DNA from: Escherichia coli
Lineage (GTDB): Bacteria; Pseudomonadota; Gammaproteobacteria; Enterobacterales; Enterobacteriaceae
DNA: 64,000 nucleotides
Assembly (NCBI RefSeq): GCF_044647545.1
Contig: NZ_CP172818.1
Strand: one strand, 5' to 3'
The position numbers and the translations under genes are program-made. Shown piece by piece: positions 1,783 through 47,698 of the stretch; the stretch's first letter is position 1; every line of letters starts with the position of its first letter. Under the pieces are notes generated by a model that was not told where the DNA came from, searched no databases, and worked only from the letters and a program-made list of their open reading frames with translations.

Positions 1783-3168
1783 TTACTTGCCTGTGACCGC
1801 GGCTGCCGTTCCTGGCACCATCAGCTCTGTAGCAACGATAACAATCACCAGCCCAACAAGCACCGGTACCGAGGTGCGTTTTACGACTTCAAATGGTGAG
1901 ATTTTCGCCATCCCGGCAACCGCAACGACTACGCCAGAAACGGGTGACAGGGTACGACCGAGGTTTGACGCCTGCAGCATTGGGATAGTCAAATACGCCG
2001 GGTTAATGCCGGAAGAGTGCGCCAGTTTCGGGATCATCTCAACAAACGCATAAAACGGCGCATTGCCTGAACCGGTCGTGACTGCCGCCAGCATTGTCAG
2101 GATCACTAATACCAGCATCAGGATGATACTCGCCGAACCAAACGAGGTGGCGATAGAAATCAGACTTTGAATAAAGCCGATGGTGCTAAGCCCCTGAGCG
2201 AATACCCCAGCGGCAACCAGCAGCATCACCACGTTAGCAAACGCATCGGCCATCCCGCGATAAGCCACTTCCAGACCAGAGAAAACTTTCTGGGTATTAA
2301 AGCTGCGGATGAACTCCAGAATGGAGGCAATCAGCATACAAATCACCAGAATAGTGATGATGTGTAATTGCGGACCCCATTTGCCGTCAAAAATCAGCAC
2401 TCCGATGATCGGCGTGAACGGCAAAATGGCATAAAACGCAGGAGCAGTAGTGGTGATTTCACTGACATCTAACATTTCATGAGAGATATGCTCTTTTTTA
2501 TCCAGATAACGTTGCCAGAAGAAGTGGGCGATCGCCATGCCGATAATTGCAGCAATTGAGATAGGCAGCGTCGTTTTGAAGGCGAAGTCAATCAGCGACA
2601 TTTCGGAAGCCTGCGCCGCCAGCACCACATCCCCTGAAGTCGGTGCGAGAATAATCGCCGCCGGGGAGGCACAAATAGCAGCAGCTGCACCACGGCTGAT
2701 ACCAACGTTTACCATCACCGGAAACAGGGTTGCCATCAGCAAAACACCCAGACCGGTTGCGGAAGAGACGGCCAGAGACATCAGACAGGCGACAAAATAG
2801 GCGGCAATCATCAGCAGGTAAGGGGAGTTAATATACTGCAATGGTTTTGACGCCAGCTTGACCACCATATCATTCGCGCCGATATGGGTCATGTAAGCGG
2901 CAAAGCCACACAGCATCATAATCATCATGCCGAGGTCGCCGCCGCGGCTCATTAGCAATATTTTAACGTATTCAACGATATCCGTGGCGCTGTAGCCTGT
3001 TGAAGCCTGGCTGGACGGTAACACTTTGTGCCCCATAATGGCACTGATAATCAGCAATAACAGGCCACCGACAAATAACACGCCAGTGGCGGAATACCCT
3101 TTAATGATGTAGCGAGCTACACCCACAATAACCATAACCCCAATAAGGAGTTCAATGAATGTCAGCAT
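1783..3168 (-). CDS. dcuC: Anaerobic C4-dicarboxylate transporter DcuC, 461 aa
   Basis: Long polytopic membrane ORF recognised as DcuC; position after dpiA as in E. coli. Confidence 0.9.
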   Translation of the reverse strand: MLTFIELLIGVMVIVGVARYIIKGYSATGVLFVGGLLLLIISAIMGHKVLPSSQASTGYSATDIVEYVKILLMSRGGDLGMMIMMLCGFAAYMTHIGANDMVVKLASKPLQYINSPYLLMIAAYFVACLMSLAVSSATGLGVLLMATLFPVMVNVGISRGAAAAICASPAAIILAPTSGDVVLAAQASEMSLIDFAFKTTLPISIAAIIGMAIAHFFWQRYLDKKEHISHEMLDVSEITTTAPAFYAILPFTPIIGVLIFDGKWGPQLHIITILVICMLIASILEFIRSFNTQKVFSGLEVAYRGMADAFANVVMLLVAAGVFAQGLSTIGFIQSLISIATSFGSASIILMLVLVILTMLAAVTTGSGNAPFYAFVEMIPKLAHSSGINPAYLTIPMLQASNLGRTLSPVSGVVVAVAGMAKISPFEVVKRTSVPVLVGLVIVIVATELMVPGTAAAVTGK

Positions 3169-3756
3169 AATTTTTCCTGTCTCCAGGCCCCAAAGTAAAT
3201 AATAAAAAATTCCTAAAAATTAAGGAAAAAATATGCCCAATAAATTGGCGGTGAATGCTGATTAAAATCAAGAAAAACTGCCATTAAGACATTGAAGTTG
3301 CTGTTTTTATACGTAGATAACAAAACGCATATTTAGCGGTTGGCAAATATCACATAATAATGTGTGTAAATTGATGGTGGATTGATGCAAATTTGTTAAT
3401 TGCAATGGTGTTAGCTGCGGCCATGCGCTCAAAAAATAATCTAATATGAGCATGGGTTGACGATATATATTATATACTTCGTTAAGATGATTGTTGTATC
3501 TCGTTAAAAAATAAAATAATTTTTCCTTGATTGCATTTTGTCATCAAAAAAGACTTGGTTTTTCTTTTTTGACTATTCCCATCGCAGAAAACGACGCATC
3601 ATCTTTAATCGATGCGCGGAAATATTTAACTTAAACAAGCGGAAATAAATAGAGCAGCTATTCAGATTATTTTTTATGTTGGGGCTATTAAGGTTATGTT
3701 AATTGTAGCTTTGCTATGCTAGTAGTAGATTTTTGATAAATGTTTAATGGTCACAA

Positions 3757-19406: not shown

Positions 19407-21989
19407 TTAGCCAACGACCAGATTGAGGAGTTTACCGGGTACGTAAATCACTTTACGCACGGTAACGCCATCAAGATATTTTGCTACCAGATGTTCCTGG
19501 CCAGCACGTTCGCGAACCTGTTCTTCCGTTGCGTCCACCGGAACGGTGATTTTTGCACGGACTTTACCGTTAACCTGCACCACGACCAGCGTGGAGTCTT
19601 CCACCATCGCTTTTTCGTCGGCAACCGGCCACGGCGCGTTGTCGATATCGCCTTCGCCTTTCAGTTCCTGCCACAGCGTGAAGCAGATGTGCGGGGTGAA
19701 CGGGTTAAGCATACGGACAACGGCCAGCAGTGCTTCCTGCATCAGGGCGCGGTCCTGCTCGCCATCGGTCGGTGCTTTCGCCAGTTTGTTCATCAGCTCC
19801 ATAATCGCCGCAATTGCGGTGTTGAAGGTCTGACGACGGCCGATATCATCGGTCACTTTAGCGATCGTTTTATGCACATCGCGACGCAGCGCTTTCTGAT
19901 CTTCAGTCAGCGCATCAACGTTCAGTGCTGCAACATCACCTTTCGCTGTGTGCTCGTAAACCAGTTTCCAGACACGTTTCAGGAAGCGGTTAGCCCCTTC
20001 CACGCCGGATTCCTGCCATTCGAGAGTCATATCAGCCGGAGAAGCAAACATCATAAACAGACGAACGGTGTCCGCGCCGTAACGTTCAACCATCACCTGC
20101 GGGTCGATACCGTTGTTCTTCGACTTGGACATTTTGCTCATGCCGGTATAAACCAGTTCATGGCCTGCCGCATCTTTCGCTTTCACGATACGGCCTTTCT
20201 CGTCACGTTCAACGATAGCATCAACCGGGGAAACCCAGTTACGTTCGCCGTTTTCGCCAACATAGTAGAAGGCATCTGCCAGCACCATACCCTGACACAG
20301 CAACTGTTTTGCTGGTTCGTCAGAGTTCACCATGCCTGCATCACGCATCAGTTTGTGGAAGAAGCGGAAGTAGAGCAGGTGCATAATGGCGTGTTCGATA
20401 CCACCAATGTAGATATCCACCGGCAGCCAGTAGTTAGCCGCTTTGGAATCCAGCATACCTTCTTTGTACTCCGGGCAAGTGTAGCGCGCATAGTACCAGG
20501 AGGACTCCATAAAGGTGTCGAAAGTGTCGGTTTCACGCAGCGCTGGCATACCGTTAACGGTAGTTTTTGCCCACTCCGGATCTGCTTTAATCGGGCTGGT
20601 AATGCCGTCCATCACCACATCTTCCGGCAGGATCACCGGCAGCTGGTCGTCCGGGGTCGGCATTACGGTACCGTCTTCCAGCGTCACCATCGGAATCGGC
20701 GCGCCCCAGTAACGCTGACGAGAAACACCCCAGTCGCGCAGGCGGTAGTTCACTTTACGCTCGCCAACGCCCATCGCAGTCAGTTTATCGGCGATGGCGT
20801 TGAAGGCCGCTTCATGGTCAAGACCGTTGAACTCGCCAGAGTTGAACAGCACGCCTTTTTCAGTCAGGGCTTGCTGAGAAAGATCTGGCTCAGAGCCGTC
20901 AGCTGCCAGGATAACCGGTTTGATATTCAGGCCGTATTTAGAGGCAAACTCGTAGTCGCGCTGGTCGTGACCCGGAACCGCCATAACTGCGCCCGTGCCG
21001 TATTCCATCAATACGAAGTTTGCTGCCCAAACGGGAATTTCTTCGCCCGTTAATGGGTGAACCGCTTTAAAGCCAGTATCGACGCCTTTTTTCTCCATCG
21101 TCGCCATTTCAGCTTCGGCAACTTTGGTGTTACGGCATTCGTCAATAAAGGCCGCCAGTTCAGGATTATTTTCCGCCGCTTTCTGCGCCAGCGGATGACC
21201 CGCCGCTACCGCCAGGTAGGTACAACCCATAAAGGTGTCCGGACGGGTAGTGTAAACGGTCAGCGTGTTGTCATAGTCGTTAACGTTGAAGGTGATTTCC
21301 ACGCCTTCGGAACGACCGATCCAGTTACGCTGCATGGTTTTAACGGTGTCTGGCCAGTGATCCAGTTTATCCAGATCGTTAAGCAGCTCGTCAGCGTAAG
21401 CGGTGATTTTGATAAACCACTGCGGGATCTCTTTACGTTCAACTTTGGTATCGCAGCGCCAGCAGCAGCCGTCGATAACTTGTTCGTTCGCCAGTACGGT
21501 CTGGTCGTTCGGGCACCAGTTGACCGCAGAAGTCTTTTTATATACCAGGCCTTTTTTATACAGCTCGGTGAAGAATTTCTGTTCCCAACGGTAGTATTCC
21601 GGCGTACAGGTTGCCAGCTCGCGGCTCCAGTCATAACCAAAGCCCAGCATTTTGAGCTGGTTTTTCATGTATGCGATGTTGTCGTACGTCCACGGTGCCG
21701 GAGCGGTGTTGTTTTTTACCGCCGCGCCTTCCGCAGGCAGACCAAATGCGTCCCAGCCAATCGGCTGCAGAACGTTTTTGCCCAGCATGCGCTGGTAACG
21801 GGCGATCACGTCACCGATGGTGTAGTTACGTACGTGGCCCATGTGTAGTCGACCAGAAGGATAGGGAAGCATAGACAGGCAGTAATACTTCTCTTTGCTC
21901 TCGTCTTCGGTTACTTCAAATGTGCGCTTCTCATCCCAATGAAGCTGTACTTTGGATTCTATCTCTTCCGGGCGGTATTGCTCTTGCAT
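19407..21989 (-). CDS. leuS: Leucyl-tRNA synthetase LeuS, 860 aa (ORF track extends 47 codons further upstream; MQEQYRPEE is the likely true start)
   Basis: Class I aaRS HMGH (HMGHVRNY) and KMSKS (KMSKSKNN) motifs. Confidence 0.95.
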
Positions 21990-23916: not shown

Positions 23917-24624
23917 ATGGACATGGAGTCGCAAAAAATATTGTTTGCACTTTCCACTCCGATGGAAATACGCAATGAATGCTGTTTACCTTCGCATTCA
24001 TCCCCCAAAATGTATTTAGGTACACGCTTTTTTGACCTTTCTTCCTCCTGGGGAATTGATGACCGTGATGACCTGCTGCGCACAATTCACCGAATGATCG
24101 ATAACGGTCATGCCGCTCGGTTGGCAGGGCTTTATCACCGCTGGTTTCGTTATTCTCCGTGTGAATGGCGTGACTATCTTGCTGAACTAAATGAGCAAGG
24201 TCAGGCTTATGCGCAATTTGTCGCCAGCACCGCCGAATGCTGTGGCGAAGGGGGAATCAAAGCCTGGGATTATGTCCGGATGGGTTTTTTAAGCCGAATG
24301 GGCGTACTTAATAACTGGTTGAGTGAAGAAGAAAGCCTGTGGATCCAGTCGCGCATTCATCTACGGGCTCTACGTTATTATAGTAACTGGCAGCAATACT
24401 TTGCCGGTTATACCTTTGGTCGGCAATATTGGCAGTCTCCCGAGGATGATGATCTGCCTTTATTACGTGAATTCTTAGCGCGTAAAGAATACGACGATTC
24501 CGGCAATGATATGTTTTATCAATTATTTGCCAGTGACGATGCATATTACGCGACCTTACCCTGGCAACCACTGGCTGACTACCCCACATGCCCGGAAACG
24601 CTTAAGGATATGAGCGACCTATGA
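23917..24624 (+). CDS. ybeR: YbeR, 235 aa, DUF1266-like protein (family name from memory); paralogue of YbeU
   Basis: Start chosen at internal ATG so length matches the YbeU paralogue; shares [20 protein letters not shown] and ATLPWQPL...LKD(M/V)SDL with YbeU. Confidence 0.8.
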
Positions 24625-26048
24625 AAAATTGCTGGAAGATTCTCGAAATAGAGGAAACGACTGACGTCGATATTATCCGCCGCGCTTATCTGGCGCTGTT
24701 ACCGTCCTTTCATCCAGAAACCGATCCGCAGGGTTTTAAACAACTTCGTCAGGCGTATGAGGACGCGCTACGGATTGCGCAGTCGCCTGCTAAATCTGTT
24801 TGGCAACCAGAAGAACATGAAGTTGCAGAACATGAAATTCTGCTCGCCTTTCGTGCGTTACTCGCCTCTGATAGCGAACGTTTTCTGCCCTCTGCCTGGC
24901 AGCGATTCATTCAGCAATTAAATTATTGCTCGATGGAAGATATTGATGAATTACGCTGGTCGCTGTGCACAATAGCCATGAACACTGCCCATTTATCCTT
25001 CGAGTGCGTGGTGTTATTAGCAGAAAGATTGCGGTGGTTGCAGGAGGAAAACGTCGGGGAAATAGACGAAGAAGAACTGGAATCCTTTTTATATGCCATT
25101 GCGAAGGGGAATGTTTTTAACTTCCAGACCATTCTGCATCTGCCCGTTGCCGTACAAAATGACACCATTGATTTTTACCAAATGTTCGCTCGGATTTGGT
25201 CATCGCATCCAGAATGGCTGACATTGTATTTAGCGCAACATCGCGCAGTGATTATCCCCGATGATGCAAATTTGCACAGAAATTTACTCCGCTGGTATAG
25301 CACAAGCCGTCTGGATATCCCCGAACTTCTGGATTACGCCCGGTCGTGGCGGGAAGCTGAACCTGATAATGAAGATGCGCGTTATTATGAATACGCGCAA
25401 CGCGTCTATTGTGGAGAAGGCGAAAGCCTGCTGGCAGAACTTTGTGACTACTGGCGCGAGTATCCCTCCACCCAGGCGGATGCTTTAATGTTGCAATGGT
25501 GCCGTCAGCATCGGGTCGATTATTACCCGTTAGTGGTGATGATGATTGAAGCGCGTGATCTGGTTAACGATCAGGGAAAACCGCTACTTTATGTCCCTGG
25601 TGACAGCGCTCGTACGCGTTTTCATTTATACGAAATACTCAGTGATGAAAAACTCTCTGCGCTGGGGCGTTCTCTGGTCGAGATGGTTTTGCACAAAGGA
25701 CGTAAGCCGCGGATCTCACTCACGCGTGATACAGAACATACCTTATGGTCATTATATCTAGTTGCCAAACAATTAGTGCAGGCCAGCCAACCGACAGAAG
25801 AATCATTAATGCCGATTGTGAGCCGCCTTGATGCAGAAGATCGTTGTCCTCTGGAAGCATTAATTATTCGACGGTTATTAATTCAGGCGGCGAATTTTAC
25901 CGAGAAGCAAACCGTCGAACCGGAGCCGCAACCGCAGTCGATGCCCGTTGACGATGGTGGGCCGGGCTGTCTGGGCGTCATCAAAATTATTTTCTACATT
26001 TTTATCTTTGCCGGTTTAATAGGGAAAATACTCCATCTGTTCGGGTGA
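24621..26048 (+). CDS. djlB: J-domain co-chaperone DjlB (YbeS), 475 aa, with C-terminal hydrophobic anchor
   Basis: N-terminal J-like domain ([33 protein letters not shown]), C-terminal hydrophobic segment ([21 protein letters not shown]); start overlaps ybeR stop as ATGA. Confidence 0.85.
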
Positions 26049-26713: not shown

Positions 26714-27421
26714 ATGAATAAGGAAGAACAATATCTTCTTTTTGCGCTTTCTACGCCCATGGAAATACTTAATCAGGGTTGCAAGCCCGCGCATGACTCG
26801 CCAAAAATGTATACCGGGATAAAAGAATTCGATCTCTCATCATCCTGGGGAATAAATAATCGTGATGATTTAATTCAGACTATTTATCAGATGACCGATG
26901 ATGGTCATGCCAATGATTTAGCTGGCTTATATCTGACATGGCATCGCTCTTCCCCTGAAGAGTGGAAAGCATTAAATGCTGGTGGCTCGGAGAGAGGGTT
27001 GATTTATACCCAATTCGTTGCCCAAACCGCTATGTGTTGTGGGGAAGGGGGAATCAAAGCCTGGGATTATGTGCGGATGGGTTTTTTATCACGGGTTGGT
27101 GTGCTCAACAAGTGGCTGACGGAAGACGAGAGTTTATGGCTGCAATCGCGCGTCTATATACGAGCACACCATTACTATCACAGCTGGATGCACTATTTTT
27201 CCGCCTATTCGTTAGGGCGTCTCTACTGGCAATCTTCTCAGTGCGAAGACAACGCTTCGCTACGCGAGGCGCTAACCCTGTACAAATACGATAGCGCCGG
27301 GAGTCGGATGTTCGAAGAGCTGGCAGCGGGAAGCGACCGTTTCTATGCCACGCTTCCCTGGCAGCCATTAACTGTCCAGCCTGAATGCCCGGTAACGCTT
27401 AAGGATGTGAGCGACCTATGA
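26714..27421 (+). CDS. ybeU: YbeU, 235 aa, DUF1266-like protein; paralogue of YbeR
   Basis: Collinear similarity to YbeR over the full length. Confidence 0.85.
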
Positions 27422-28869
27422 AAACATGTTGGCAAATCCTCGAAATTGAAAGCACGACGCAAATAGACATTATCCGCCAGGCTTATCTTGTTCGCTTACC
27501 GTTGTGTCATCCCGAAACCGATCCGCAGGGGTTTAAAGCATTACGCCAGGCCTATGAAGAGGCGCTGCGACTGGCGGTAAATCCTGTCGAGGAGGCAGAT
27601 GATGAAGAAAAAGATGCCGCCGCTGAACATGAAATACTACGTGCATTCAGGGCATTACTGGATTCTGAAAGTGATCGTTTTCAGCCCTCCGCCTGGCAGA
27701 AATTTATTCAGCAATTAAATACCTGGAACATGGAGGATGTCGATCAATTACGCTGGCCGCTGTGTGCAGTCGCTATAGAAGCGCGATATCTTTCATTAAA
27801 TTGTGCTTCTTTGCTGGCAGAGCGTTTGAACTGGCATTCGTTTAATGACAGCGAAGGAATGGATGAGGAAGAAAGGGAGGCTTTTCTTGAGGCCATTCAG
27901 GCTGGTGATTGTTTCGATTTCCTTAGCCTTCTGGAATATCCCGTCGCGTTGCAGAACCAGACTGTTGAGTATTACTTCGCGCTGGAACGCTGCTGCCGTT
28001 ACCATCCTGACTATGTCACTGCGTTTATGGCAATGGAAGGTCCGTGGTTCATTCCTGATGATGTCAAGTTACATCGCAAACTGTTGCGCTGGTACAGCTC
28101 GGTGAAAACAGGTATGGCGGAACTTATTCCTGTTGCCCAACAGTGGCAAGCAGAAAATCCAGAAAGCGAAGATGCCCGTTATTACCAGTGTGCGCAACGG
28201 TTGTACTGTGGCGAGGGGGAAAGCCTGCTTGCCGATCTCTGCGCATACCGGGAGAGTTACCCATCTACACAAGCTGATAATTTGTTGTTGCAGTGGAGCA
28301 AGCGTCATTGCCCGGATTATTTCGCGTTATTAGTGATGGTTATCGAAGCGCGAAGCATGATAGATGCGCAAGGTCAACCGTTGAAATATGTTCCTGGTGA
28401 GAGCGCCCGGACGCGGCTGTTATGGGCGGAAATTTTACATAGCGGAAAATTATCGCCGTTAGGTCAATCGTTTATTGAGTCGTTATTCTTCAAGCGCAAA
28501 GCATGGGCATGGTGGAAATCGAGAGTCGGTAGCGAGACAGAACAAGATTCACCGTTACTGGATTTGTATCGGGTAGCGGAACAGGTTGTGCTGGAAGCGT
28601 TCCCGAAACAAGAGATGCTGGCCCGTCTTAATACAAGGCTGGAAGGTGGAGATGCTCATCCATTAGAGGCCATTATCACGCGGATGCTGTTGACGAAAGT
28701 GAAACTCGAGCCGGAGGATGAAGATGTCGATGAGCCAACACCTGAAAACCACGAAGAAAAAAATGATGAGGATGAAAAACCACAGAGCATTACCAGCATT
28801 ATCAAAATCAGCTTAACGGTGCTGGTGATAGGTTATGCTCTCGGAAAAATCGCGATGTTGTTTAGCTGA
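27418..28869 (+). CDS. djlC: J-domain co-chaperone DjlC (YbeV), 483 aa, with acidic tail and C-terminal hydrophobic anchor
   Basis: J-like domain ([13 protein letters not shown]), acidic stretch ([24 protein letters not shown]), terminal hydrophobic helix; start overlaps ybeU stop as ATGA. Confidence 0.85.
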
Positions 28870-34953: not shown

Positions 34954-35050
34954 ATCCAACTCCTTTATCTTCTGCGTTAAAAACGCATGGATACCCGTTG
35001 TGAGTGTTTGTGTTGTTATCTCTGCGACTTTTTGTGCGGTTGTGTTTTGG

Positions 35051-35082
<32 letters not shown>

Positions 35083-35689
35083 TTAGGTAACATTTAGTTT
35101 GGATAAATGTAAAGGTATTGCTGTTTTATTGTTTGTTTTTGCGAGATGCGCCGCACCATTCCGAAGCAAAATTCTTAAACTGCACCTTTTTGGTGCTACC
35201 GCTGATTTGTGGTGGTGCAACCCGGTTGCGTCGCGGTTGATTTCATTGCTTACACAGTAAATAAAGCAACTTACATGCCAAAAAATACTTAGGGGTGCAT
35301 TAATTACGATTGTAATTTCAGTTTGAAAAAGTCATATTTCGGACAGTGTTAACTTTTCGGTGTGGGAATTTTGCCGGGATGATAACTACACACGGGAAAA
35401 TGTTTTTTACTAGTCTTTTCAAGGAAAAATCACTTTATGTCTGCATCTTCGGTTAAGCCGTTAAATGTTCAATTACCCGCAATAACCCTGATCCTTTTTG
35501 CGCTCTGTGTTGGGATATTTTGTTACCTCGCACAATGGATGAGTTACAAAAAAGTCAATAAATCCGCACTCATCCATCTCGGCGCTAACTTTCTCTCTCT
35601 CACGTTGTCGGGTAAACCCTGGCGTTTATTTAGCAGTGTCTTTTTACAGTATTTTTTCTCTTTTATAGATATATATTTTTGCACTCTGG

Positions 35690-36790
35690 TTAGGGGGGAG
35701 GGGGGGAAGGGAAAATGGGGAAAAGGGGATCCCTATTGTTTGCCTTTTTCTCTCGGGTTTGTGTGGTGAGCACATCGTCTTGTGTTATGCGCGAAAAAAA
35801 AGAGAAAAGATAGATAGGTGGGGGGGCCGGGGGAAAAAAGGAAAAAAAGGGGGGGCGGTAAGAAAAAAACACTTCTTTAGGGGGGAGAACACAATAAAAA
35901 ACAGCGGCGAGGTTTTTTCCTTTTTGGTGGGGTGGCGCTAACGTTGTGTTGCGGCCCGGGAAAAAGAGAAAAAAAAAGCCTCTTCAATGGCGGGGCCGTG
36001 GGTGGGGGGGGGGGTTGGGTGGGGGGGGGCCCGGTTAGGTGGGACAAAACCGTTTCGTAAGGAAGGGCGAGTTTTTTGTGGCTCTTCTTTTCTCCGGCGG
36101 GGTATTTCGGGTGTGCAGCAGCAGAATGATGAAAAATTTTTTTAAAATAGGGGAAAACCGCGTGAAAAGTTTTTTTCCCAGGAGAATAAACAAAAGGAGC
36201 GAAAAAAAAAACAACAATTTAGGGGGGAGGGCAAAGCCCCCACCGAAACATTATCCGCTCCGGTAAGTCGTGAGGAGGCCAGTGGTGATTTACTCGCTGA
36301 GATTGCCGATAACCATGATATGGCGATCAATCGGGATGGTAATACGTTATATGCCGCAAATGAAAACACGAACAGTATTTTTTTTTTCGACCTCGGACAA
36401 AAGAAAATCTCCCATACTTTTATACCGCCCATAGCAAAAAAAAAAAAACACAAAAATTGTGGGGTCTGTAAAAATAAGGGGGTAAGATGGCGGTGGTTAA
36501 GCCCGAAAAAAAGGTTTTTTTATCCACTTTTATTTAAAATGAATGCGTGATCGTTAATAAAGGGGCGGAGGGGGGGGATAATTCAGTCAATAACCACCTG
36601 CACACATCCTGACAGTTTTATCCTCTCGTGGAATGAAAAAAAAGCTGGGTGAATAATGCAACCAATAAAATGTATTTATTCATCTATTGATTTATTAACT
36701 TATAAGGAAGGAGATGCCGCCCGAAAAAAAAAAAACGGGGGGGGGAGGAGGGGAAAAAGACGCCCGTGTGATATTACTCTCCGCGGTAAA
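35690..36790. other. Low-complexity purine-rich block with long poly-G and poly-A runs; no coherent coding frame; probable artefact or degraded DNA
   Basis: Runs such as gggggggaggggggg, gtggggggggggggttgggtggggggggg, aaaaaaaaaaaac and gggggggggagg; every overlapping ORF translates to low-complexity G/K/F/P-rich peptides. Confidence 0.8.
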
Positions 36791-37423
36791 AAAACATTGT
36801 TGATACCGCTTGGATTGAGAGAAAGCATATTCGAATCAATAACATCACGAATCATAAAGTAGAATTTCCCACATGTGATGGGTGTGGTGTCGTTGTTGTG
36901 ATGGGAGTATGATAACGAAAAAATAATAGTATTTTTATCGATAATATCGAGGGTATACGAGTAAAAGTTTAAGGATAGAAAAAAAAGAAGCAAAGATCAA
37001 AAGGGAGTGGTGAAACCGTTATCTCTATTAGGTTGAGAGGCAGGAGTGTAAATAGTTGTGTTTTGGTCTGGATGGCAAAGGGATTGTAACCTTTTTTAAT
37101 ATAAAGCCGGGGAAAAGATTGGCGGTTTTTCTCCCCATAACTTTTATTCTTCTCTGTTTTTCAGCGGATGGTAGAAAGATATTTGTTATGGCGAAGAACG
37201 GGTTAATCCAAATGGACAGGACGCGCTCGCTTGATCCGCAGGCAATTATTCGGCATCCCCAATATGGTGATGTGGCTTGTATCCCTGAACCGTAAGAAAA
37301 AGGGGCATGATAATCACGCCCGAAGTAATGAGAAAGTACGTTTTGTTGATACCGGATGCGGTGTTAACGGTTTATTTAGCCTGCAAAAATGATGCAATTT
37401 TGCAGGCCAGCGCATCATTTACA

Positions 37424-43184: not shown

Positions 43185-44360
43185 ATGACAAATCAACCAA
43201 CGGAAATTGCCATTGTCGGCGGAGGAATGGTCGGCGGCGCACTGGCGCTGGGGCTGGCACAGCACGGATTTGCGGTAACGGTGATCGAGCACGCAGAACC
43301 TGCACCGTTTGTCGCTGACAGCCAGCCTGACGTGCGGATCTCGGCGATTAGTGCGGCTTCGGTATCATTGCTTAAAGGTTTAGGCATCTGGGACGCGGTA
43401 CAGGCTATGCGTTGCCATCCTTACCGCAGACTGGAAACGTGGGAGTGGGAAACGGCGCATGTGGTGTTTGACGCCGCTGAACTTAAGCTACCGTTGCTTG
43501 GCTACATGGTGGAAAACACTGTCCTGCAACAGGCGCTGTGGCAGGCGCTGGAAGCGCATCCGAAAGTAACGTTACGTGTGCCAGGCTCGCTGATTGCATT
43601 ACATCGAGATAATGATCTTCAGGAGCTGGAGCTGAAAGGCGGTGAAGTGATCCAGGCGAAGCTGGTGATTGGCGCTGACGGTGCAAATTCGCAGGTGCGG
43701 CAAATGGCGGGAATTGGCGTTCATGCCTGGCAGTATGCGCAGTCGTGTATGTTGATTAGCGTACAGTGCGAGAATGATCCCGGCGACAGCACCTGGCAGC
43801 AGTTTACTCCGGACGGGCCGCGTGCGTTTTTGCCGCTGTTTGATAACTGGGCGTCGCTGGTGTGGTATGACTCTCCGGCGCGTATTCGCCAGTTGCAGAA
43901 TATGAATATGGCGCAGCTCCAGGCGGAAATCGCGAAGCATTTCCCGTCGCGTCTGGGTTACGTGACACCGCTTGCCGCTGGTGCGTTTCCGCTGACACGT
44001 CGCCATGCGTTGCAGTATGTGCAACCAGGGCTTACGCTGGTGGGCGATGCCGCGCACACCATTCATCCGTTGGCGGGGCAGGGGGTTAACCTCGGTTATC
44101 GCGATGTTGATGCGCTGATTGACGTTCTGGTGAATGCCCGCAGCTACGGTGAAGCGTGGGCCAGTTATCCTGTCCTCAAGCGTTACCAGATGCGGCGTAT
44201 GGCGGATAACTTCATTATGCAAAGCGGTATGGATTTGTTTTATGCCGGATTCAGCAATAATCTGCCACCACTGCGTTTTATGCGTAATCTCGGATTAATG
44301 GCGGCGGAGCGTGCTGGCGTGTTGAAACGTCAGGCGCTGAAATATGCGTTAGGGTTGTAG
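43185..44360 (+). CDS. ubiF: 2-octaprenyl-3-methyl-6-methoxy-1,4-benzoquinol hydroxylase UbiF, about 391 aa
   Basis: FAD-binding GxGxxG (IVGGGMVGG); start set two codons into the ORF. Confidence 0.9.
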   Translation: MTNQPTEIAIVGGGMVGGALALGLAQHGFAVTVIEHAEPAPFVADSQPDVRISAISAASVSLLKGLGIWDAVQAMRCHPYRRLETWEWETAHVVFDAAELKLPLLGYMVENTVLQQALWQALEAHPKVTLRVPGSLIALHRDNDLQELELKGGEVIQAKLVIGADGANSQVRQMAGIGVHAWQYAQSCMLISVQCENDPGDSTWQQFTPDGPRAFLPLFDNWASLVWYDSPARIRQLQNMNMAQLQAEIAKHFPSRLGYVTPLAAGAFPLTRRHALQYVQPGLTLVGDAAHTIHPLAGQGVNLGYRDVDALIDVLVNARSYGEAWASYPVLKRYQMRRMADNFIMQSGMDLFYAGFSNNLPPLRFMRNLGLMAAERAGVLKRQALKYALGL

Positions 44361-44364
44361 CCTT

Positions 44365-44460
44365 ACAACATTGCCGGATGCATGCCAACCGTAGGTCGGA
44401 TAAGACGCGTCAGCGTCGCATCCGACTTTGAAGGATAAGACGTGTCAACATCGCATTCGA
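44365..44460. repeat. Cluster of REP-like palindromic units downstream of ubiF
   Basis: gccggatgcatgcc...taggtcggataagacgcgtcagcgtcgcatccgac...ggataagacgtgtcaacatcgcattcgac. Confidence 0.6.
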
Positions 44461-44479
44461 CATTGAATATACGCAGAAA

Positions 44480-44510
44480 AGCAAAAAGCTCGCCGAAGCG
44501 AGCTTTTTTA
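44480..44510 (-). terminator. Intrinsic terminator of the metT tRNA operon
   Basis: agctcgc-ttcg-gcgagct hairpin followed by a T-run on the minus strand, just distal to the last tRNA. Confidence 0.7.
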
Positions 44511-44513
44511 ATG

Positions 44514-44588
44514 TGGCTGGGGTACGAGGATTCGAACCTCGGAATGCCGGAATCAGAATCCGGTGCCTTACCGCTTGGCGATACCCCA
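44514..44588 (-). tRNA. glnX: tRNA-Gln (anticodon CUG)
   Basis: Reverse complement is a 75-nt tRNA-Gln (UGGGGUAUCGCC...GGAUUCUGAUUCC...CCAGCCA). Confidence 0.9.
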
Positions 44589-44625
44589 ACTGGGTGCACT
44601 TACAAGGTAAGCGTCTTGAATAAAT

Positions 44626-44700
44626 TGGCTGGGGTACGAGGATTCGAACCTCGGAATGCCGGAATCAGAATCCGGTGCCTTACCGCTTGGCGATACCCCA
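44626..44700 (-). tRNA. glnV: tRNA-Gln (anticodon CUG)
   Basis: Identical copy of the preceding tRNA-Gln(CUG). Confidence 0.9.
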
Positions 44701-44748
44701 ACAAATTGGTTTTTGAATTTGCCGAACTTATTCGACACATTCAGAATT

Positions 44749-44825
44749 TGGTGGCTACGACGGGATTCGAACCTGTGACCCCATCATTATGAGTGATGTG
44801 CTCTAACCAACTGAGCTACGTAGCC
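44749..44825 (-). tRNA. metU: tRNA-Met elongator (anticodon CAU)
   Basis: Reverse complement is a 77-nt elongator tRNA-Met (GGCUACGUAGCUCAGUUGG...CUCAUAA...CCA). Confidence 0.9.
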
Positions 44826-44840
44826 AGATTGTTTCTTCGA

Positions 44841-44915
44841 TGGCTGGGGTACCTGGATTCGAACCAGGGAATGCCGGTATCAAAAACCGGTGCCTTACCG
44901 CTTGGCGATACCCCA
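44841..44915 (-). tRNA. glnW: tRNA-Gln (anticodon UUG)
   Basis: tRNA-Gln variant with anticodon loop GGUUUUUGAUACC and acceptor/T-arm differences from the CUG copies. Confidence 0.9.
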
Positions 44916-44949
44916 ATAACCGGGCGGTGAACCGCTTACTCGAAGAAGA

Positions 44950-45024
44950 TGGCTGGGGTACCTGGATTCGAACCAGGGAATGCCGGTATCAAAAACCGGT
45001 GCCTTACCGCTTGGCGATACCCCA
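44950..45024 (-). tRNA. glnU: tRNA-Gln (anticodon UUG)
   Basis: Identical copy of the preceding tRNA-Gln(UUG). Confidence 0.9.
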
Positions 45025-45047
45025 TCCGTACAACGCTTTCTGGTGAA

Positions 45048-45132
45048 TGGTGCGGGAGGCGAGACTTGAACTCGCACACCTTGCGGCGCCAGAACCTAAA
45101 TCTGGTGCGTCTACCAATTTCGCCACTCCCGC
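45048..45132 (-). tRNA. leuW: tRNA-Leu (long variable arm; leuW-type)
   Basis: 85-nt class II tRNA (GCGGGAGUGGCGAAAUUGGUAGACGCACCAGAUUUAGGUUCUGGCGCCGCAAGGUGUGCGAGUUCAAGUCUCGCCUCCCGCACCA). Confidence 0.9.
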
Positions 45133-45140
45133 AAAAAAGA

Positions 45141-45217
45141 TGGTGGCTACGACGGGATTCGAACCTGTGACCCCATCATTATGAGTGATGTGCTCTAACC
45201 AACTGAGCTACGTAGCC
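45141..45217 (-). tRNA. metT: tRNA-Met elongator (anticodon CAU)
   Basis: Identical to the metU copy; first gene of the operon. Confidence 0.9.
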
Positions 45218-45244
45218 ATCTTTTTTTTCGCGATACCTTATCGG

Positions 45245-45295
45245 CGTTGCGGGGCGCATTATGCGTATAGAGCCTTGCAGCGTCAACCTCTTTTT
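45245..45295 (-). promoter_or_regulatory. Putative sigma70 promoter of the metT tRNA operon with GC-rich discriminator
   Basis: On the minus strand: TTGACG ... CATAAT-like -10 ... GCGCCCCGC discriminator about 25-70 nt upstream of metT. Confidence 0.5.
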
Positions 45296-45586
45296 CAAGG
45301 AAAATTGCTCGAAAGTGACTGTTTGGTTAGGTTGCGAACAGCGTGGCGCTATATTCGTCAATTATTGTTTACTTTGTGTTTTTTCCCCACCCTACAGCCA
45401 TTCTTTTGTCATACAGGATGAAATTCGGAATTCAACAATAGTGGTGGGAAATTAATCTATGAAATACTCCCTTCAACAACACAGGATTACCTCATTTCTA
45501 CCACACATTTATTAGGAATACTATCTTTTATACATTATTACTTAAACCTCCAACCAAACCGAAAAAAATATTTTTTAAAATTAAAA

Positions 45587-45645
<59 letters not shown>

Positions 45646-45744
45646 GAAGCGTGGCCTACAGTGATGAATTGTCAAACAGTGATGTGGCAAACCCGGAACA
45701 TTTCCTTACTGCATATCAGAATCAACAAGCACCTCAATAACTGA

Positions 45745-45781
45745 AACAGCCCCGGATTTTACCGGGGCTGTTTCGCATTTC
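45745..45781 (-). terminator. Probable intrinsic terminator downstream of asnB
   Basis: cagccccgg-atttta-ccggggctg hairpin adjacent to the asnB stop; weak T-run. Confidence 0.5.
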
Positions 45782-47446
45782 TTACTTGTACGCCGACTGG
45801 TGAACACCAACCGCACGACCAGATGGATCGTCCATTTTTTTGAACGCTTCATCCCATTCGATCGCTTTAGCGGAAGAACACGCGACGGAAGGACCGCCCG
45901 GCACGCACTCAGCGGCGCTCGGAAGCGGGAACAGTTCTTCAAAGATCTCGCGGTACAGATACGCTTCTTTGGACGTCGGCGTGTTGTACGGGAAGCGGAA
46001 GCGGGCAGTTTCCAGCTGTTGATCAGAAACCTGCTGCGCCGCCACTTCTTTCAGGGTGTCGATCCAACTGTAACCGACGCCATCGGAGAACTGCTCTTTC
46101 TGCCGCCAGGCCACGCTTGCGGGCAGATACGCTTCAAAACATTCACGCAGGATGTGTTTTTCCATTTTGCCGTTACCGCACATTTTATCCTGTGGGTTAA
46201 TGCGCATCGCCACGTCGAGGAATTTTTTGTCGAGGAACGGAACGCGTGCTTCCACGCCCCAGGCGGACATCGCTTTGTTGGCACGCGCGCAGTCATACAT
46301 ATGCAGGGCCAGCAGTTTACGCACCGTCTCTTCATGCAGTTCTTTGGCATTCGGCGCTTTGTGGAAGTATAGATAACCGCCAAACACTTCATCAGATCCT
46401 TCACCGGACAGCACCATTTTAATGCCCATCGCCTTGATCTTACGCGACATTAAATACATCGGTGTTGAAGCGCGAATAGTGGTCACATCATAGGTTTCGA
46501 TGTGGTAAATCACGTCGCGGATGGCGTCCAGACCTTCCTGTACAGTGAAGTGAATTTCATGATGCACAGTGCCCAGATGGTTTGCCACTTCCTGGGCTGC
46601 CTTCAGATCCGGTGAACCCGGCAGACCTACAGCAAAGGAGTGCAGCTGCGGCCACCAGGCTTCAGAGCGTTCCTGATCTTCCACGCGACGGGCGGCGTAT
46701 TTCTTGGTGATAGCGGAAATGATTGAGGAATCCAGGCCACCAGATAGCAGCACACCGTAAGGCACATCAGACATCAGATGGCTTTTAACGGAATCTTCCA
46801 GTGCCTGACGCAGCTCGTTTTTGTCGGTCACGTTATCTTTCACCGCATCGTAGTCGAACCAGTCGCGATGATAATAAGAACGGATTTCGCCGTCCTGACT
46901 CCACAAATAGCTCCCCGCCGGAAACTCTTTAATCGTGCGGCAAACTGGCACGAGGGCTTTCATTTCTGAGGCCACATACAGCTGACCGTGTTCGTCATAG
47001 CCCATATACAGTGGGATGATCCCCAGATGGTCGCGACCAATCAGATATGCATCTTTTTCGCTGTCGTACAGGGCAAAGGCAAACATGCCCTGCAAGTCGT
47101 CGAGAAATTCCGGCCCTTTTTCCTGATACAGCGCGAGGATCACTTCACAGTCAGACCCGGTCTGGAATTGGTAACGATCGCCATATTCAGCGCGCAATGC
47201 CTGGTGGTTGTAGATTTCACCGTTTACTGCCAGCACATGAGTTTTTTGTTGGTTGTAGAGAGGTTGCGCCCCCGCGTTAACGTCAACAATTGACAGACGT
47301 TCGTGGGCGAGAATGGCGTTATCGCTGGCATAAATACCGGACCAGTCCGGGCCACGATGACGCATCAGGCGTGACAGCTCGAGTGCTTTCTTACGCAGCT
47401 CAACTGCGTCTGTTTTGATATCGAATACGCCAAAAATTGAACACAT
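45782..47446 (-). CDS. asnB: Asparagine synthetase B (glutamine-hydrolysing) AsnB, 554 aa
   Basis: N-terminal MCSIFGVFD nucleophile cysteine, PP-loop SGGLDSS; ORF track starts 21 codons upstream of the likely true start. Confidence 0.95.
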   Translation of the reverse strand: MCSIFGVFDIKTDAVELRKKALELSRLMRHRGPDWSGIYASDNAILAHERLSIVDVNAGAQPLYNQQKTHVLAVNGEIYNHQALRAEYGDRYQFQTGSDCEVILALYQEKGPEFLDDLQGMFAFALYDSEKDAYLIGRDHLGIIPLYMGYDEHGQLYVASEMKALVPVCRTIKEFPAGSYLWSQDGEIRSYYHRDWFDYDAVKDNVTDKNELRQALEDSVKSHLMSDVPYGVLLSGGLDSSIISAITKKYAARRVEDQERSEAWWPQLHSFAVGLPGSPDLKAAQEVANHLGTVHHEIHFTVQEGLDAIRDVIYHIETYDVTTIRASTPMYLMSRKIKAMGIKMVLSGEGSDEVFGGYLYFHKAPNAKELHEETVRKLLALHMYDCARANKAMSAWGVEARVPFLDKKFLDVAMRINPQDKMCGNGKMEKHILRECFEAYLPASVAWRQKEQFSDGVGYSWIDTLKEVAAQQVSDQQLETARFRFPYNTPTSKEAYLYREIFEELFPLPSAAECVPGGPSVACSSAKAIEWDEAFKKMDDPSGRAVGVHQSAYK

Positions 47447-47659: not shown

Positions 47660-47698
47660 TGGCTAAAATAAGAAACCACGCCCTGAGGCGTGGTTGCT
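47660..47698 (-). terminator. Intrinsic terminator after umpH
   Basis: aaccacgccctgaggcgtggtt hairpin followed on the minus strand by a T-rich run. Confidence 0.65.

Follow-up and report, generated by a model that had tools for sequence, protein, structure and literature searches.

The cluster of seven tRNA genes described here was confirmed to be the E. coli metT operon, a seven-tRNA transcription unit that is already known. Our reading of the whole locus, in which we have very high confidence, is that this metT operon would be transcribed as a single precursor, that nothing has been integrated at the site, and that an A-rich stretch lying upstream of it is probably a technical corruption of the sequence. 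All positions refer to the window, i.e., the whole 64-kb stretch of E. coli DNA that was analyzed.

Identity and gene content of the operon

ARAGORN found seven tRNA genes in the 64-kb window, and no more, all of them on the minus strand, and each of the seven matched the Rfam tRNA model with scores of 57.6 to 71.1 bits (E values of 1e-11 to 1e-14), the gathering score of the model being 29. In the direction of transcription, the first gene of the operon is metT, coding for an elongator tRNA-Met(CAU) (45141-45217), followed by leuW, a tRNA-Leu(UAG) gene of 85 nt with a long variable arm (45048-45132), and by glnU (45024-44950) and glnW (44915-44841), both for tRNA-Gln(UUG). After them come metU (44825-44749), again an elongator tRNA-Met(CAU) gene, and the two tRNA-Gln(CUG) genes glnV (44700-44626) and glnX (44588-44514), the latter being the last gene of the operon. 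Each assignment was obtained with both ARAGORN and Rfam and also agrees with the K-12 annotation. Read along one strand, the genes run Met(CAU)-Leu(UAG)-Gln(UUG)-Gln(UUG)-Met(CAU)-Gln(CUG)-Gln(CUG), as in the E. coli metT operon, and the chromosomal place is also the same as that of the metT operon of K-12, with ubiF downstream and asnB upstream.

An earlier note on this DNA, made from the letters alone, had reported seven minus-strand tRNAs and considered the locus ordinary biology. The genes were indeed recovered at the same coordinates and in the same order by ARAGORN, Rfam, and the K-12 annotation, and the ordinary reading is supported by the K-12 gene order, anticodons, and neighbors, as well as by genes, promoter, and terminator that are base-identical to those of K-12. 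Alignment gave 100% identity within each of the pairs metT and metU, glnU and glnW, and glnV and glnX, so that the two identical copies of elongator tRNA-Met and the two identical pairs of tRNA-Gln mentioned in that note are both real. However, its description of the Gln pairs as differing in anticodon was too narrow, since tRNA-Gln(UUG) and tRNA-Gln(CUG) differ at seven aligned positions: the wobble base of the anticodon and sites in its stem and in the T stem where the changes are paired or compensatory.

Promoter, leader, and terminator

The motifs of one promoter upstream of metT and of one rho-independent terminator after glnX are present, and their activity is predicted. The putative promoter (45250..45310, minus strand) was located with a consensus scan and does not differ between the window, an ST648-type genome, and K-12. 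It consists of a -35 element TTGACG (45286-45281) with an A/T-rich stretch upstream of it, a 17-nt spacer, and a -10 element CATAAT (45263-45258), with 10 of the 12 hexamer positions matching the consensus, and right after the -10 comes a G+C-rich discriminator, GCGCCCCG (45257-45250). This combination of TTGACG, 17 nt, and CATAAT is the only sigma-70-like site within 43500-46500 and lies ca. 34 nt upstream of metT. The stable-RNA-type promoter with a GC-rich discriminator proposed earlier thus appears to be well founded, both the hexamers and GCGCCCCG being identical to those of K-12. Judged from the discriminator, the metT promoter would fall in the class under growth-rate and stringent control. 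If the start point is placed from the -10 hexamer, the predicted 5' leader (45218..45251, minus strand) has ca. 34 nt, a length consistent with the metT species of ca. 125 nt whose 5' end is unprocessed and which accumulates in RNase P mutants (PMC2241853).

The rho-independent terminator (44473..44508, minus strand) was identified by a terminator scan, its fold, its identity to K-12, and the published experiments (PMC2241853). It begins 5 nt past the CCA end of glnX, after the A/U-rich CAUUA, and is made of an 11-bp stem, AAAAAGCUCGC-UUCG-GCGAGCUUUUU, at 44508..44483, followed by the U-rich tail UUUUUGCUUUU. The predicted folding energy is -17.9 kcal/mol (z = -4.0 against 200 shuffles). The hairpin terminator claimed earlier is therefore present, with this z score and identical to K-12, but it sits just outside the 44514 boundary that had been given to the operon. 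The consensus scans by themselves were not above chance, either for the promoter (one found against 3.2 expected) or for the terminator (five found against 3.9 expected), so the case for both elements rests on their position, the z score of the fold, the identity to K-12, and the experiments in PMC2241853.

Transcription, processing, and essentiality

In K-12, Mohanty and Kushner detected a full-length transcript in which the seven tRNAs and the terminator were all included; the latter, whose presence inhibits RNase P, is normally taken off first by RNase E, and RNase P then separates the tRNAs, while RNase E also helps to separate metU-glnV-glnX (PMC2241853). Since the sequence of the operon is identical to that of K-12, we assume that cotranscription and processing by RNase E and RNase P operate in the same way here. 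Transcription would start at the sigma-70 promoter of stable-RNA type, ca. 34 nt before metT, to give one polycistronic precursor that would span all seven genes and end at the UUCG-loop hairpin 5 nt after glnX. RNase E would then remove the terminator, RNase P would cut the 5' ends of the tRNAs, RNase E would help to part the last three of them, and exonucleases would trim the tRNAs to their encoded CCA ends.

Tiefenbacher et al. could delete this transcription unit only when a complementing plasmid was present, and the unit holds all the genes for elongator tRNA-Met(CAU), tRNA-Leu(UAG), tRNA-Gln(UUG), and tRNA-Gln(CUG) (PMC11480407). As the sole source of every tRNA-Gln, of elongator tRNA-Met, and of the only tRNA-Leu(UAG), the unit is essential.

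Conservation and closest genomes

An 831-bp query covering the operon matched 5,424 of the 5,426 complete E. coli genomes, with a coverage of at least 80% in 5,356 and an identity of at least 99% in 5,296 of them; in about 68 genomes no single place matched at 80%. Over 18 kb, the window was 100.0% identical to E. coli of the ST648 type (for instance, IMT16316, ST648, MS6198, and ECONIH1). Compared with IMT16316, the whole 64 kb differs only by one single-nucleotide polymorphism (SNP), one 1-bp indel, and two patches. The SNP is a G/A substitution at 21175, and the indel is a change from A5 to A4 at 47668, in the asnB-nagD spacer. Secondary BLAST hits also revealed an internal duplication, with two paralogous stretches (23944-24967 and 26741-27764) ca. 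67% identical to each other in the djlB/ybeR and djlC/ybeU region.

Two patches of altered sequence

The first patch is an anomalous A/T-rich segment of 182 bp (45469..45650) outside the operon, which became apparent in the comparison with ST648-type genomes. It contains a run of 49 A (45588-45636) and another of eight (45638-45645). The segment has the metT promoter region on one side and the asnB terminator on the other. It starts ca. 218 nt upstream of the predicted start site, and from there to the promoter the sequence is intact. It was absent from the earlier note, just beyond the upstream range that had been proposed there for scanning. In the closest genomes, its place is taken by a 429-bp spacer segment that includes most of a 145-amino-acid open reading frame (ORF), WP_000943487.1, with a signal-peptide-like start and without any match in Pfam. 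The 429-bp segment is a presence/absence polymorphism: 986 of the 5,426 complete genomes have it and K-12 does not, and TGGCC stands at both junctions. The part of the metT-asnB spacer of IMT16316 at 2720-3200 of the extracted locus corresponds to ca. 45469-45650 of the window.

A gap-tolerant alignment paired the first ca. 108 nt of the patch (45469-45576), in order, with the opening 177 bases of the native segment, giving 105 matches, 3 mismatches, and 69 deletions (score z = 11.9 against shuffles). Among the deleted bases, 41 were G, i.e., 85% of the 48 G of the native sequence, and none was A. The remaining ca. 250 bp of the native segment are replaced by the A runs. Searches of the 5,426 E. 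coli genomes, of phages and plasmids, of the GTDB representatives, and of JGI metagenomes gave no match to the 182-bp segment. Foreign DNA and a retro-inserted polyadenylated RNA were both considered as its source and rejected, given that its letters follow those of the native spacer in order, depleted of G.

The second patch (35020-37420) covers the spacer upstream of gltI and the gene of a 625-amino-acid rhomboid-family protease. It has kept the native length, with an identity of ca. 79 to 82% and 66 gap openings, and the rhomboid-family gene is broken into small ORFs, no long ORF being left in the patch. Long runs are also found here (A28 at 35051-35078, G11, A13, and A12); indeed, all the homopolymers of at least 10 bases in the window fall within the two patches, while the same region of IMT16316 has none longer than nine. 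In the second patch, 70% of the 459 substitutions copy a neighboring base, against a baseline of 46%, and 34 of the 48 inserted bases are A. Along the plus direction, the identity decays gradually and returns abruptly to 100%. Natural divergence or recombination was discarded for this patch, because the best match among the 5,426 genomes is the same ST648 locus, at 79% over the same length, and also because of the 66 gap openings, the lack of a long ORF, and the neighbor-copying substitutions. Targeted A-specific hypermutation similar to that of diversity-generating retroelements (DGRs) was rejected as well, considering the many indels and the presence of all substitution types.

We had to consider whether the 182-bp segment with its A49 run could be real DNA, either foreign and AT-rich or reverse transcribed from a polyadenylated RNA. 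It does look, superficially, like the 3' end of an mRNA with a poly(A) tail, with ATTAAA just before the A run, and it is unique among all the collections searched. Still, we consider a real origin very unlikely. Outside the poly(A), the sequence runs collinear to the native spacer, 85% of the G and no A having been dropped, a pattern of drop-out that rules out a foreign source and fits no known mutational process; no target-site duplication was seen at the junctions of 45469-45650, and in the second patch homopolymers are smeared in the same manner although the genome is identical elsewhere. We know of no mutational process by which 85% of the G would be lost, or bases smeared into neighboring ones, within a genome that is otherwise identical. 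Technical corruption of the native spacer, rather than biology, is the most likely explanation of 45469-45650, as suggested by its letters, and we read both patches as probable products of base calling, gap filling, or a later alteration of the sequence. Speculatively, their lack of a match among the RefSeq complete genomes might mean that the record had been left out of that set for its quality.

That an uninterrupted A49·T49 segment, ca. 220 to 400 bp upstream of the start site, exists in an ST648-type strain deserves very little credence. If true, it would far exceed in length every other homopolymer of the complete E. coli genome regions examined here, and it would be a hypermutable and rigid A-tract that replaces a small secreted-protein gene near an essential stable-RNA promoter. 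Features that touch 35020-37420 or 45469-45650, for example, runs of poly(A), an unusual composition, or the broken rhomboid-family gene, are probable artifacts.

Search for an integrated element

Genes for tRNAs are common targets of integration, and among the sites used by prophages and genomic islands are leuX, pheV, selC, and ssrA. The last 23 to 25 nt at the 3' end of tRNA-Gln, tRNA-Met, and tRNA-Leu had no further copy in the 64 kb, even allowing up to three mismatches. The ORFs of the flanks gave no significant match in Pfam, whether to an integrase, a recombinase, or any other domain; a hit to bAvd was at chance level (E value of 0.15, 13 bits against a cutoff of 40). The flanks of the cluster are collinear with other E. 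coli genomes and their synteny is undisturbed, with no block of foreign DNA breaking it, the only noncollinear stretch being the garbled native sequence described above. The absence of an integrase or att-like remnant after the cluster, as had been stated earlier, was thus borne out by the tRNA 3'-end search over the 64 kb and by the Pfam scan of the flank ORFs.

Near the cluster, the only other repeat is a pair of tandem 35-nt palindromic units at 44398-44467, in the interval from the ubiF stop codon to the terminator. Neither unit derives from a tRNA. We take them to be REP-like from their resemblance to the REP consensus, and K-12 has them too, apart from a few substitutions.

Two other views of the cluster can be weighed on these data. 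According to one, it would bear the scar of an integrated prophage or island, of which the odd upstream segment would be a remnant. In its favor are the general targeting of tRNA genes and the polymorphism of the metT-asnB spacer, with the 429-bp segment in 986 of 5,426 genomes and TGGCC at both junctions. Yet that segment is on the promoter side and not at a tRNA 3' end, has just 429 bp, and carries no mobility gene; moreover, there is no partial copy of a tRNA 3' end anywhere in the window, neither the flank ORFs nor the 145-amino-acid ORF contains an integrase or any significant Pfam domain, and ubiF and asnB are in their usual places, all of which reduces the probability of a scar to nearly nil. 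According to the other, the cluster would be a decayed or nonfunctional copy, with a working operon elsewhere. Nothing was found in favor of this view, which is just as hard to sustain and to which we give next to no weight, given that the seven genes are identical to the functional genes of K-12, that the CCA ends, promoter, and terminator are intact, that the locus is the normal chromosomal site, and that the unit is single copy and essential in E. coli (PMC11480407). The data support an intact metT operon with nothing integrated at the locus.

Recombination between identical copies

The identical tandem copies had also been pointed out as potential substrates for recombination, and two cases bear this out, a 112-bp deletion in one complete E. 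coli genome and an event between metT and metU in Salmonella (PMC5400242). The former is that of E. coli STS63-1-E (NZ_CP162163.1), which has a six-gene operon after the clean loss of one 112-bp glnV/glnX unit, keeping the upstream context of glnV and the downstream context of glnX. Recombination between the identical copies would leave such a structure, but so would their collapse in the assembly, which is a known error for identical copies of 75 to 77 nt. In Salmonella, a spontaneous recombination of metT with metU on a plasmid deleted leuW-glnU-glnW (PMC5400242).

The chromosome record of another strain, E. coli CEA224S (NZ_CP166080.1), lacks all seven genes, with a cut running exactly from the 3' end of glnX to the 5' end of metT (1391-1922 of the extracted locus), the promoter and the terminator remaining in place. 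No other copy of the operon was found in this record. Given that K-12 cannot do without the unit, a biological loss is less likely here than a fault of the assembly or a relocation. In E. coli DH1 (NC_017638.1), the annotation gives only three of the four Gln genes as tRNA-Gln; the missing one is presumably supE44, the amber suppressor allele of glnV in this laboratory strain.

Comparison with known systems

The metT operon is a textbook case that has been sequenced, whose processing has been dissected and whose essentiality has been shown, and the finding adds little as a discovery. What the check does is to close the question of an integration site at the metT locus. The likeness to prophages and islands integrated at tRNAs is limited to the presence of tRNA genes, as the window has neither an integrase nor a second copy of a tRNA 3' end, nor any block of foreign DNA.

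The two patches, for their part, resemble unpolished or miscalled stretches of assemblies, with which both share homopolymer inflation, base drop-out, a directional decay, and an abrupt return to identity. Unlike the usual scattered indels of assemblies, they show neighbor-copying substitutions and the loss of 85% of the G, while the rest of the window is essentially error free.

In K-12 MG1655, the operon (b0664-b0673) comprises glnX, glnV, metU, glnW, glnU, leuW, and metT arranged and oriented as in the window, with ubiF and asnB on either side, and no base differs between the two in any of the seven genes, in the promoter, or in the terminator. Every difference falls in the spacers or upstream of the promoter, with seven single-base differences (substitutions or indels) in the ubiF-side and inter-tRNA spacers and another two in the spacer upstream of the promoter. 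For example, the metT-leuW spacer has 8 nt in the window and 9 in K-12. As for the metT-asnB spacer, the window has that of the ST648 type, which includes the extra segment, here garbled; K-12 lacks this segment. Outside the genus, the metT operon of Salmonella enterica, likened here by its description, has the same seven-gene layout next to asnB (PMC5400242).
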